From Escherichia coli (lineage in GTDB: Bacteria > Pseudomonadota > Gammaproteobacteria > Enterobacterales > Enterobacteriaceae): a stretch of DNA of 64,000 nt. Below the pieces are notes generated by a model. The model saw only the letters and a program-made list of their open reading frames with translations. It ran no database searches and was not told the origin of the DNA. The position numbers were made by a program, and so were the translations under genes. The DNA is taken from NCBI RefSeq assembly GCF_044324875.1, contig NZ_CP172185.1; one strand, written 5' to 3'. Below, piece by piece: positions 28,332 to 31,824 of the stretch (position 1 is its first letter; each line of letters opens with the position of its first letter).

Positions 28332-28807
28332 AATGCTCTCCTGATAATGTTAAACTTTTTTAGTAAATCATCTGCTCGAATACGAGAGTATAGTCAGTGC
28401 GGTGATGATTTGCTTAACCGATGAAAATCAAAAGCTTACTCGCGCTCACACTCACTGTGATTTACTAAAAGAGTTTAAACATTAGAGTTATTATCTCTAA
28501 TGCGTCACTTCCAGGTGGCGTAAGCAAGATTACTCACTTCTGGGTACTGATTACGTGATCCAAATCAAATTTTTGCAAAGCTGACACCTTTCAGCATCGC
28601 TTTTCGCCATTATAGCTAACAGTTAATAAATTGTAGTATGATTTGTTGGCTACATTATCATGTTTTGCACAACCAGATAACAATAACGAATGATAGCAAT
28701 TTTAAGTAGTTAGGAGGTGAAAAATGCTGTCAAAAGGCGTATTGTCAGCGCGTCTTTTTAACCTTATTTATGGCTAACATTATCCGGCTTTTGCTTCGGA
28801 GCTAACC

Positions 28808-29455
28808 GTGATTCAGACCCTTTTTGATTTTCCCGTTTACTTCAAATTTTTCATCGGGTTATTTGCGCTGGTCAACCCGGTAGGGATTATTCCCGTCTTT
28901 ATCAGCATGACCAGTTATCAGACAGCGGCAGCGCGAAACAAAACTAACCTTACAGCCAACCTGTCTGTGGCCATTATCTTGTGGATCTCGCTTTTTCTCG
29001 GCGACACGATTCTGCAACTTTTTGGTATATCAATTGATTCGTTCCGTATCGCCGGGGGCATCCTGGTGGTGACGATAGCGATGTCGATGATCAGCGGCAA
29101 GCTTGGCGAGGATAAACAGAACAAGCAAGAAAAATCAGAAACCGCGGTACGTGAAAGCATTGGTGTGGTGCCACTGGCGTTGCCGTTGATGGCGGGGCCA
29201 GGGGCGATCAGTTCTACCATCGTCTGGGGTACGCGTTATCACAGCATTAGCTATCTGTTTGGTTTCTTTGTGGCTATTGCATTGTTCGCTTTATGTTGCT
29301 GGGGATTGTTCCGCATGGCACCGTGGCTGGTACGGGTTTTACGCCAAACCGGCATCAACGTGATCACGCGTATTATGGGGCTATTGCTGATGGCATTGGG
29401 GATTGAATTTATCGTTACTGGTATTAAGGGGATTTTCCCCGGCTTGCTTAATTAA
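28808..29455 (+). CDS. ychE: MarC-family inner membrane protein YchE
   Basis: 215-aa membrane ORF, GTG start. Confidence 0.85.
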   Translation: MIQTLFDFPVYFKFFIGLFALVNPVGIIPVFISMTSYQTAAARNKTNLTANLSVAIILWISLFLGDTILQLFGISIDSFRIAGGILVVTIAMSMISGKLGEDKQNKQEKSETAVRESIGVVPLALPLMAGPGAISSTIVWGTRYHSISYLFGFFVAIALFALCCWGLFRMAPWLVRVLRQTGINVITRIMGLLLMALGIEFIVTGIKGIFPGLLN

Positions 29456-30192
29456 TTCCTTTCAAATGAAACGGAGCTGTCATGCTCCGTTTACTTCGTC
29501 ATTATTTTTACTTTGTTCCGGTGCAGTTATCAAAAGCAAAGGGAATGGGTAAAAATATTCTTCTTGAATTACAGTTGGTTATAAGGATTTCCTTAACTGC
29601 TTCTCCTCACCATCATGTTATTTTCGCCACATCATAATCCTGGGCTTGCTGAAGAATAATTGAAATGATATTAGTTATTCCACTGCCTTTGGTAGAGGAA
29701 AGTGCTAAATAATAATCAATTGTTAAATTATTGTGCATTTCACTACTGGAACTGTAATCAGAAAAGATAGACATGCTTAACCAATCTCTATTTGATTGAA
29801 TTGAAAGATGTTTGTTAAGACATGGATGCAAGCTATAGATTCTGATACGGTCAATAAAAGAGAATTGCTTAACAATTTTGCAAAATGTATTGGCGAGTAA
29901 GAAGCGCATTTGGTACTTTCCGGGCAACCGCCAGACGATTCTTTATTGGTAATGAGAATAATTAACAATTAAAGAGCGTCGCGAAAGAATAATGTGTCTC
30001 GACAGGGGAGACACAGTACGAATCGACATAAGGTGATCGTCTGAATCACCAGAATAAATAAAGTCGGTGATAGTAATACGTAACGATAAAGTAACCTGAC
30101 AGCAGAAAGTCTCCGAGCCTGTGCAGGGTCCCAATCCGGGATTACACATGCTGGTTAATACCAGTAATTATAATGAGGGAGTCCAAAAAACA

Positions 30193-31824
30193 ATGACCAA
30201 CATCACCAAGAGAAGTTTAGTAGCAGCTGGCGTTCTGGCTGCGCTAATGGCAGGGAATGTCGCGCTGGCAGCTGATGTACCCGCAGGCGTCACACTGGCG
30301 GAAAAACAAACGCTGGTACGTAACAATGGTTCAGAAGTTCAGTCATTAGATCCGCACAAAATTGAAGGTGTTCCGGAGTCTAATATCAGCCGAGACCTGT
30401 TTGAAGGCTTACTGGTCAGCGATCTTGACGGCCATCCGGCACCTGGCGTCGCTGAATCCTGGGATAATAAAGACGCGAAAGTCTGGACCTTCCATTTGCG
30501 TAAAGATGCGAAATGGTCTGATGGCACGCCAGTCACAGCCCAAGACTTTGTGTATAGCTGGCAACGTTCTGTTGATCCGAACACCGCTTCTCCGTATGCC
30601 AGTTATCTGCAATATGGGCATATCGCCGGTATTGATGAAATTCTTGAAGGGAAAAAACCGATTACCGATCTCGGCGTGAAAGCTATTGATGATCACACAT
30701 TAGAAGTCACCTTAAGTGAACCTGTTCCGTACTTCTATAAATTACTTGTTCACCCATCAACTTCACCGGTGCCAAAAGCCGCTATCGAGAAATTCGGAGA
30801 AAAATGGACCCAGCCTGGTAATATCGTCACCAACGGTGCCTATACCTTAAAAGATTGGGTCGTAAACGAACGAATCGTTCTTGAACGCAGCCCGACCTAC
30901 TGGAACAACGCGAAAACCGTTATTAACCAGGTAACCTATTTGCCTATTGCTTCTGAAGTTACCGATGTCAATCGCTACCGTAGTGGTGAAATCGACATGA
31001 CTTATAACAACATGCCGATCGAATTGTTCCAGAAGCTGAAAAAAGAGATCCCGGACGAAGTTCACGTTGATCCATACCTGTGCACTTATTATTACGAAAT
31101 TAACAACCAGAAACCGCCATTTAACGATGTACGTGTGCGTACCGCACTGAAACTGGGTATGGACCGCGATATCATTGTTAATAAAGTGAAAGCGCAGGGC
31201 GACATGCCCGCCTATGGTTACACTCCACCGTATACTGATGGCGCAAAATTGACTCAGCCGGAATGGTTTGGCTGGAGCCAGGAAAAACGTAACGAAGAAG
31301 CGAAAAAACTGCTGGCTGAAGCGGGTTATACCGCAGACAAACCGTTAACCATCAACCTGTTGTATAACACCTCCGATCTGCATAAAAAGCTGGCGATTGC
31401 TGCCTCTTCATTGTGGAAGAAAAACATTGGTGTAAACGTCAAACTGGTTAACCAGGAGTGGAAAACATTCCTCGACACCCGTCACCAGGGCACTTTTGAT
31501 GTGGCCCGTGCAGGCTGGTGTGCAGACTACAACGAACCAACTTCCTTCCTGAACACCATGCTGTCGAACAGCTCGATGAATACCGCGCATTATAAGAGCC
31601 CGGCCTTTGACAGCATTATGGCGGAAACGCTGAAAGCGACTGACGAGGCGCAGCGCACAGCTCTGTACACTAAAGCAGAACAACAGCTGGATAAGGATTC
31701 GGCCATTGTTCCTGTTTATTACTACGTGAATGCGCGTCTGGTGAAACCGTGGGTTGGTGGCTATACCGGCAAAGATCCGCTGGATAATACCTACACCCGG
31801 AATATGTACATTGTGAAGCACTAA
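30193..31824 (+). CDS. oppA: Oligopeptide ABC transporter periplasmic binding protein
   Basis: 543-aa ORF from ATG at 30193 with GAGGGAG RBS; signal peptide MTNITKRSLVAAGVLAALMAGNVALA. Confidence 0.95.
   Translation: MTNITKRSLVAAGVLAALMAGNVALAADVPAGVTLAEKQTLVRNNGSEVQSLDPHKIEGVPESNISRDLFEGLLVSDLDGHPAPGVAESWDNKDAKVWTFHLRKDAKWSDGTPVTAQDFVYSWQRSVDPNTASPYASYLQYGHIAGIDEILEGKKPITDLGVKAIDDHTLEVTLSEPVPYFYKLLVHPSTSPVPKAAIEKFGEKWTQPGNIVTNGAYTLKDWVVNERIVLERSPTYWNNAKTVINQVTYLPIASEVTDVNRYRSGEIDMTYNNMPIELFQKLKKEIPDEVHVDPYLCTYYYEINNQKPPFNDVRVRTALKLGMDRDIIVNKVKAQGDMPAYGYTPPYTDGAKLTQPEWFGWSQEKRNEEAKKLLAEAGYTADKPLTINLLYNTSDLHKKLAIAASSLWKKNIGVNVKLVNQEWKTFLDTRHQGTFDVARAGWCADYNEPTSFLNTMLSNSSMNTAHYKSPAFDSIMAETLKATDEAQRTALYTKAEQQLDKDSAIVPVYYYVNARLVKPWVGGYTGKDPLDNTYTRNMYIVKH

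Follow-up and report, generated by a model that had tools for sequence, protein, structure and literature searches.

Enterobacterial mRNA leaders carry 5'-proximal stem-loops and processing-site hairpins, such as the stabiliser in the ompA 5' UTR. The small RNA GcvB represses ABC-transporter mRNAs via C/A-rich elements at their ribosome-binding sites, and oppA is a classic target of this repression. The oppA leader itself has been described in E. coli K-12 (Igarashi et al. 1997; PMC9988348). According to Carrier, Lalaouna and Masse 2023 (PMC9988348), two oppA start sites are confirmed, P1 (+1) and P2 (+246), and the former "P3" (+341) is shown to be an RNase E processing site. In their account the MicF site spans +372 to +393 and an AU-rich translational enhancer comes next; a polyamine-responsive structure lies some 60 nt beyond, the Shine-Dalgarno (SD) sequence is immediately preceded by an Hfq site, and GcvB acts on the oppA ribosome-binding site. 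In Salmonella, the MicF sponge RNA OppX derives from the oppABCDF 5' UTR (Matera et al. 2022, as cited in PMC9988348); stable OppX fragments are reported to be undetectable in E. coli K-12, where MicF activates oppA translation.

Here we analysed the spacer between ychE and oppA in a 64,000-nucleotide stretch of E. coli DNA (contig NZ_CP172185.1, hereafter the window). The locus and its gene order are those of the K-12 oppA leader, and we conclude, with a probability of roughly 0.8, that the spacer is the oppABCDF operon control region previously characterised in that strain. Its biology is already known and ordinary, and the AT-rich gap belongs to the known oppA control region. A preliminary description of the window, made from the letters alone, had called the spacer AT-rich and its biology probably conserved and ordinary; both statements hold. 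The present analysis adds a map in window coordinates, evidence of covariation in the leader hairpins, the rejection of an annotated open reading frame (ORF) and a lead concerning the R3 seed of GcvB and a hairpin loop. Its importance outside annotation is slight; the annotation should show the oppABCDF promoters here, with a regulatory leader of 511 nt.

The ychE-oppA spacer, its promoters and its reading frames

The spacer occupies positions 29456-30192 edge to edge (737 bp), between the ychE stop codon at 29453-29455 and the oppA ATG at 30193. Its neighbourhood in the window comprises adhE (minus strand), ychT, ychE (28808-29455) and oppA, and this adhE-ychT-ychE-oppA context, with its flanks, is the same as in K-12. 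Of 5426 complete E. coli genomes, 5423 carry the spacer DNA, with identities of 95-99.9%. Comparison with the K-12 oppA leader, which the preliminary description had proposed as a check, reveals no difference between the window and MG1655 from 29905 up to the oppA ATG, so that P2, both leader hairpins and all post-transcriptional sites have the K-12 sequence; three SNPs lie within 29709-29904. G+C content drops from 49.7% in the window as a whole to 37.2% in the spacer, with a minimum of 30% in 200-nt windows.

For a comparative view, loci were gathered with YchE as bait, yielding 80 loci, one per species, from Escherichia, Salmonella, Citrobacter, Enterobacter, Klebsiella, Raoultella, Kosakonia, Buttiauxella and others. 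In 76 of the 80, which represent more than 20 genera, ychE is followed by oppA, with a spacer of 664-878 bp (mostly 740-790 bp) and 34-45% G+C. The presence of a long AT-rich spacer in 76 species argues that it is an ancestral feature and not imported DNA. Its AT-richness is that of promoter, operator and leader sequence binding global regulators, rather than that of foreign DNA; for the oppA region the literature gives two Lrp ChIP peaks and lists ArcA, Fur, ModE and Nac. Conservation is high in discrete blocks (29616-29625; the P1 core, 29646-29675; 29696-29735; 29856-29925; the RNase E site; the MicF site; 30096-30105; and the pre-SD segment 30146-30175), and poor between them. An Rfam scan of the region at a permissive E-value assigned it to no family, the best matches reaching 11-22 bits against gathering thresholds of 40-79 (E = 0.4-9).

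Positions of the start sites and of the RNase E cut come from mapping in K-12 and were transferred to this strain by sequence, using the published K-12 primers (PMC9988348) to place the leader features (Table 1). Three independent anchors agree on 29682 as the P1 start: the P1-fusion reverse primer ends at 29682, the T7-oppA(+341) primer begins at 30022, and the MicF-complementary sequence, numbered +372 to +393, lies at 30053-30074. P2 (+246) is thereby placed at 29927. Two sigma-70 promoters downstream of the ychE hairpin, P1 (29682) and P2 (29927), would thus give leaders of 511 nt and 266 nt, respectively, and the processed leader has 171 nt. What had been presumed to be an oppA leader is indeed one, but its extent had been understated. 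The 511-nt leader from P1 makes up about 70% of the spacer, so that promoters and transcribed leader account for most of the "non-coding stretch".

Table 1. Features of the ychE-oppA spacer in window coordinates; z scores are relative to shuffled sequences, and numbers with a plus sign count from the P1 start
Feature	Position	Strand	Sequence or elements	Further data
ychE terminator-type hairpin	29469-29492	+	AAACGGAGC / loop UGUCAU / GCUCCGUUU	arms 29469-29477 / 29484-29492, 9 bp; begins 13 nt past ychE stop; -14.9 kcal/mol, z = -4.7
Conserved upstream block	29616-29631		TGTTATTTTCGCCACA, CRP-like; TGTTATTTTnnTCACA in most other genera	29616-29625: 90% identity (77 sequences)
P1	29646-29682	+	-35 TTGCTG 29646-29651; TG-extended -10 TATTAG 29669-29674; start A 29682	29656-29675: 89-97% conserved (77 sequences)
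Conserved block, P1 transcript +15 to +54	29696-29735			75-89% identity (77 sequences)
P2 upstream block and P2	29856-29927	+	block 29856-29895; -35 TTGGCG 29890-29895; extended -10 TGGTACTTT 29911-29919; start 29927	82-98% identity (77 sequences)
Hairpin 1	29993-30015	+	UGUGUCUC / loop GACAGGG / GAGACACA	arms 29993-30000 / 30008-30015, 8 bp, 7-nt loop; +312 to +334; -12.2 kcal/mol, z = -3.6
RNase E processing site	30016-30029	+	GUACGA|AUCGACAU	cut 30021/30022 (+341, formerly "P3")
Hairpin 2	30032-30050	+	GGUGAU / loop / AUCACC	arms 30032-30037 / 30045-30050; +351 to +369; -7.1 kcal/mol, z = -1.7
MicF-binding site	30053-30074	+	AAUAAAUAAAGUCGGUGAUAGU	+372 to +393 (PMC9988348); complementary to MicF nt 1-25; conservation 85-88%
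AU-rich stretch, proposed translational enhancer	30075-30097	+		PMC9988348; poor sequence conservation
Structured region upstream of SD	30095-30165	+	CCUG.ACAG / CUGU..CAGG 30095-30127; GC-rich GGUCCC..GGGAUU 30127-30143; CUGGU/ACCAG 30150-30165	RNAalifold consensus, some compensatory pairs
Pre-SD segment to GcvB target	30166-30209	+	AAUUAUAAUG (Hfq-site area); SD GAGGGAG 30175-30181; AUG 30193; C/A-rich GcvB R1 target ~30183-30209	30166-30175: 94% conservation

At P1, the core mapped in K-12, with its -10 element TATTAT, is not matched in the window, which reads TATTAGTTATT where K-12 has TATTATTAATT, a difference of two SNPs. The window allele, TATTAG, agrees with the Enterobacteriaceae consensus at the G, and the K-12 allele occurs in 341 of the 5426 E. 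coli genomes. The block upstream of P1 keeps a constant distance of 49 bp from the P1 -10 block in 73 of 77 sequences; it agrees with the CRP consensus at 8 of 10 positions, a score not above that of the best shuffled sequence, and a CRP site here is offered as a lead only. At P2, the upstream block lies a constant 58 bp from the -10 element in 72 of 77 sequences. The block that spans +15 to +54 in the P1 transcript contains, at 29705-29708, the CTAA occupied by IS5 (IS5U) in MG1655, and the ArcA-, Lrp- and IHF-like matches within this block are no better than in shuffled sequences. Across this AT-rich DNA, consensus scans for Fur, ArcA, Lrp, FNR, CRP, IHF and ModE likewise gave best matches no better than the best shuffled ones; a marginal Fur-like match (15 of 19 positions) at 29948-29966 is recorded with no claim of a binding site. 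A consensus promoter scan found neither P1 nor P2, and its promoter and terminator counts did not exceed those of shuffled sequences, which makes the scan uninformative here.

The proposed terminator hairpin of ychE was borne out as a G+C-rich stem of the intrinsic-terminator type, which shows paired substitutions in other genera. Its U-run is interrupted in this strain (UUUACUUCGUC): the stem itself includes UUU and is followed by ACUUCGUC. In other Escherichia lineages and other genera the stem is usually followed by a longer U-run, of UUUUUU or more. The terminator scan did not call this hairpin.

The preliminary description had seen no convincing coding sequence in the spacer. The ORFs it listed do exist, two of them on the minus strand (104 aa and 63 aa), with further ORFs of 68, 51 and 49 aa; a Pfam search of the spacer ORFs returned nothing meaningful, its sole match (E = 0.11, for the 68-aa ORF) lying far below the cut-off, and the longest ORF is not conserved in other species. 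The one reading in which the spacer would be protein-coding centres on a minus-strand RefSeq/PGAP annotation at 29613-29909, a hypothetical protein of 98 aa. Many RefSeq genomes of E. coli list this protein, and its frame is unbroken in the window; however, the same frame carries 1-10 in-frame stops in 76 of 76 other sequences, and neither the five other Escherichia lineages nor any other genus examined keeps it open. The protein belongs to no Pfam family, and the middle of its ORF coincides with the least conserved part of the spacer, its ends falling on the promoter blocks. In MG1655, moreover, IS5 splits the ORF, which is unannotated there. Given the stops in all other lineages and genera and the IS5 split, we reject the 98-aa protein and regard a coding spacer as extremely improbable; the hypothetical protein should be removed from the annotation. 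The claim of no convincing coding sequence stands.

Hairpins 1 and 2 and the processed oppA leader

All three hairpins of the preliminary description are present, with coordinates off by 1-2 nt at most, and hairpins 1 and 2, which it had placed in the presumed oppA leader, lie inside both the P1 and the P2 transcripts. Six nucleotides separate the 3' end of hairpin 1 from the RNase E cut downstream. Past the cut, hairpin 2 begins after 10 nt and stops 2 nt short of the MicF site, and it would be the first structure of the processed leader. By energy alone, hairpin 2 is no better than chance.

In an alignment of 63 species, RNAalifold predicts hairpins 1 and 2 de novo. Compensatory changes are observed at 8 of 8 pairs of hairpin 1, with 94% of cells paired, and at 5 of 6 pairs of hairpin 2, with 85% of cells paired. 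For the tested structure as a whole, 13 of 20 pairs show compensatory changes and 93% of cells are paired, versus 30-57% when the partners are slid by 1-3 columns, and the observed covariation score was reached by none of 500 shuffles. Both hairpins, as well as the ychE hairpin, are kept by compensatory changes in 60-75 Enterobacteriaceae species. G-U and U-G pairs are frequent (two positions in hairpin 1, for example, have them in 12 and in 10 sequences); as these would be A-C mismatches on the minus strand, the structure under selection is that of the sense (oppA) RNA. Among the 63 species the two arms of hairpin 1 are free to vary, and the core of its loop, CAGGG, is invariant or nearly so. 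Hairpins 1 and 2 are genuine sense-strand RNA structures under selection across Enterobacteriaceae, and the comparative data thereby lend modest new support to selection on the two hairpins that flank the RNase E site.

Two other explanations of these inverted repeats were weighed. The repeats might have arisen by chance in AT-rich DNA or might be DNA operator palindromes, as hairpin 1 is a perfect DNA palindrome and hairpin 2 taken alone is no better than shuffled sequence. The pattern of conservation, however, is the reverse of that expected of operators, which have conserved arms: here the arms covary and the loop is conserved. With no shuffle among the 500 matching the covariation, and with both hairpins within the mapped transcript, we consider chance or an operator very unlikely. 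Alternatively, hairpin 1 might act on the opposite strand as an intrinsic terminator antisense to the oppA leader: the terminator scan calls its stem followed by UUAUUCUUUC on the minus strand, where the fold is equally stable. Yet the scan found two terminator-like sites against 1.9 expected from shuffles, and the A-rich tract that lies 5' of the stem on the plus strand is not conserved beyond Escherichia. The G-U and U-G pairs of other species would become A-C mismatches in a minus-strand stem, and neither a minus-strand gene nor a known promoter lies to the right of hairpin 1. Such a terminator is therefore highly improbable, and a sense-strand RNA structure remains the preferred reading of hairpin 1. 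A single-sequence fold also offered a different pairing for GGUGAU and AUCACC, with the MicF site or with oppA codons 4-5; this was rejected, as the arms of hairpin 2 vary and those partners are constant.

What the two hairpins do is far less secure than the identity of the region, and the roles proposed here are read from position and structure. Hairpin 1 could serve as a structural boundary that holds the invariant GA|AUCGAC single-stranded for RNase E, and it may, additionally or instead, cap the 3' end of the upstream fragment released by the cut. Hairpin 2 would be the 5'-proximal stem-loop of the processed leader, where it may insulate the MicF site and keep it accessible, and it might also stabilise the processed RNA. 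One point against a plain boundary role is that it leaves the invariant or nearly invariant CAGGG core of the hairpin 1 loop unaccounted for.

Downstream of hairpin 1, the RNase E sequence and the MicF- and GcvB-complementary sites are all present in the window as exact primer or footprint matches. Cleavage at 30021/30022 would leave a 171-nt leader carrying, in order, the MicF site, the AU-rich enhancer, the polyamine-sensitive structure, the Hfq site and the GcvB R1 target at the ribosome-binding site. At the cut, AUCGAC is invariant in 63 species; a possible helix between AUCGAC (30022-27) and GUCGGU (30064-69) never varies and gives no covariation signal. Within the AU-rich stretch, the published enhancer deletion oligo removes 30080-30099. 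The structured region upstream of the SD lies in the area for which a spermidine- or polyamine-responsive "Stem I" is described in the spermidine literature summarised by PMC4191411.

Duplex predictions were made for the seed regions of MicF and GcvB. The best duplex of GcvB R1 in the whole leader is at 30183-30209 (-24.8 kcal/mol), at the ribosome-binding site as published. The preliminary description had named the oppA 5' UTR as a GcvB target and suggested that the hairpins may be regulatory in that connection. The first part is right, as the GcvB site exists at the ribosome-binding site; the association of the hairpins with GcvB lacks specificity, since the C/A-rich R1 element (30183-30209) does not overlap the hairpins (29993-30050), which flank the RNase E cut 130-190 nt upstream.

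A possible contact between the hairpin 1 loop and the GcvB R3 seed

A second way in which GcvB could touch this leader is through hairpin 1 itself. All seven bases of the loop GACAGGG (30001-30007) are complementary to GcvB nt 152-158 (CCCUGUC), within the R3 seed, and the match stops at the loop edges; the gcvB sequence used was verified against MG1655. A kissing interaction between the two would constitute a second GcvB contact, and hairpin 1 would then be a dedicated recognition element that docks the GcvB R3 seed beside the RNase E site, not a mere spacer. We consider both the contact and the docking role unlikely, judging them from complementarity and conservation. In their favour, GcvB nt 154-158 are the "mutR3" positions of the validated seed, and in the 63 species it is the loop core that is held (nearly) invariant while the stem is free to vary. 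A random 7-mer would find a complement in GcvB or MicF just 1.6% of the time. In addition, the in vitro oppA RNAs of PMC9988348 begin at +341, downstream of hairpin 1, and are thus devoid of it.

Several findings weigh against such a contact. In the single reported assay, gcvB deltaR1 behaves as delta-gcvB. GcvB nt 154-157 are partly paired in the predicted fold, with unpaired probabilities of 0.16-0.34, and the Salmonella loops GGCAGGU and GACAGGU retain only 6 bp to GcvB. The match between loop and GcvB is also a post hoc observation, made after several loops and two small RNAs had been examined. Furthermore, Busi et al. 2010 reportedly investigated a "secondary putative" site of GcvB on oppA, so that the R3-loop idea may have been put to the test and discarded before. 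A comparable complementarity between the hairpin 2 loop and GcvB nt 101-109 was set aside as chance, the loop not being conserved.

If the R3 contact were real, binding of GcvB could direct the RNase E cut, 14 nt further downstream, or tune processing at +341, and leader fragments could titrate GcvB in a sponge-like manner, as SroC does. It would add a further layer to a well-studied pair of small RNA and mRNA, one that would have been missed because the in vitro constructs start downstream of it.

Comparison with known leaders

The closest system is the E. coli K-12 oppA leader; P2, the site of RNase E processing, the MicF-binding site, the AU-rich enhancer, the SD region and the GcvB target are common to it and the window. 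They differ in the P1 -10 element, and the IS5 of MG1655, at 29705-29708, is absent from this strain. The two hairpins flanking the cut are not discussed in the sections consulted of the K-12 account (PMC9988348). The Salmonella leader is homologous, with a conserved MicF-complementary site and both hairpins, and the two Salmonella loci in the comparison (L014 and L015) retain both stems via compensatory changes. The sequence prerequisites of an OppX-type sponge are present in the leader of the window.

Among the ABC-transporter mRNAs repressed by GcvB, oppA fits the pattern of a C/A-rich element at the ribosome-binding site; the position of hairpins 1 and 2, well upstream of the R1 site, sets them apart from it. 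Like leaders of the ompA type, the oppA leader has a stable hairpin adjoining its RNase E site, as well as a stem-loop close to the 5' end that processing creates. It departs from them in that hairpin 2 begins 10 nt from the processed 5' end and not at the end, and the AUCGAC/GUCGGU helix, which would pair the processed end, is without covariation support.

The P1 promoter in K-12 and in wild strains

The more distal of the two oppA promoters, P1 (start at 29682), was mapped in K-12, whose -10 region differs from that of the window: at 29669-29679 the window reads TATTAGTTATT and K-12 reads TATTATTAATT. The K-12 allele is found in just 341 of 5426 complete genomes, and the G in the window's allele is the consensus base of other Enterobacteriaceae. 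Because the K-12 allele differs and is rare, P1 strength in wild strains may, judging from sequence, be unlike that in K-12.

The ychE-oppA spacer is also a hot spot for insertion sequences, and the region is not in one piece in about 92 of 5423 genomes. In MG1655, IS5U lies at the CTAA of 29705-29708, at +24 to +27 in the leader transcribed from P1, and P1 is therefore separated from oppA by 1.2 kb. W3110 carries IS2 at ~29675, within P1 (PMC2072959), and NCTC122 carries an IS3-family element, ISSen4, at ~29845.

Annotated and candidate features of the spacer

The minus-strand "hypothetical protein" annotated in the spacer looks like an over-annotation. Stops interrupt its frame in all other Escherichia lineages and genera examined, and the ORF shares its sequence with the promoter blocks of both P1 and P2, the promoter nearer to oppA (start at 29927).

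Annotated and candidate features in and beside the ychE-oppA spacer
Feature	Position	Strand	Remarks
ychT, small ORF	28724-28777		17 codons; just upstream of ychE; RefSeq records
Inverted repeat UUUCAnnUGAAA	29456-29468		short; kept in many genera
CRP-like candidate TGTTATTTTCGCCACA	29616-29631		TGTTATTTTnnTCACA in most genera
"Hypothetical protein"	29613-29909	minus	98 aa; RefSeq/PGAP, WP_001211521/WP_001211520, in many E. coli genomes
Fur-box-like candidate GGTAATGAGAATAATTAAC	29948-29966		15/19 match; shortly downstream of P2

The CRP-like candidate precedes the P1 -10 block at a constant distance of 49 bp. The DNA is AT-rich, and neither this candidate nor the Fur-box-like one scores above its best shuffled match. 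At the ychE end, the inverted repeat immediately precedes the ychE terminator stem, an order that may represent the A-tract/U-tract arrangement of a two-way terminator. The small ORF ychT lies outside the spacer.

Known and possible small-RNA sites in the oppA leader

In hairpin 1, a conserved stem-loop of the oppA leader, the near-invariant loop GACAGGG (30001-30007) is the exact complement of nucleotides 152-158 of the small RNA GcvB, inside its R3 seed. For MicF, a second small RNA acting on this leader, the "construct oppAUCG" oligo in Table S3 of PMC9988348 is intended to compensate the MicF-CGA mutation. As printed, the oligo alters the AGU beside the Shine-Dalgarno sequence (30180-30182) and leaves unchanged the 3'-terminal AGU of the upstream MicF site (30072-30074); the table, the construct or the present reading may be off.

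Spacing of the P1 and P2 blocks

Across the window and 76 spacers from other species of Enterobacteriaceae, the distance from the P1 -10 block to the P2 upstream block (29663-29856) is constant at 198-200 bp in 68 of the 77 sequences, and within Escherichia it is constant at 190-191 bp. Sequence conservation within the spacer is lowest between these two blocks. Two Lrp ChIP peaks at oppA, together with DNA bridging by Lrp, have been reported in the literature, and the fixed distance between the blocks may be related to them.
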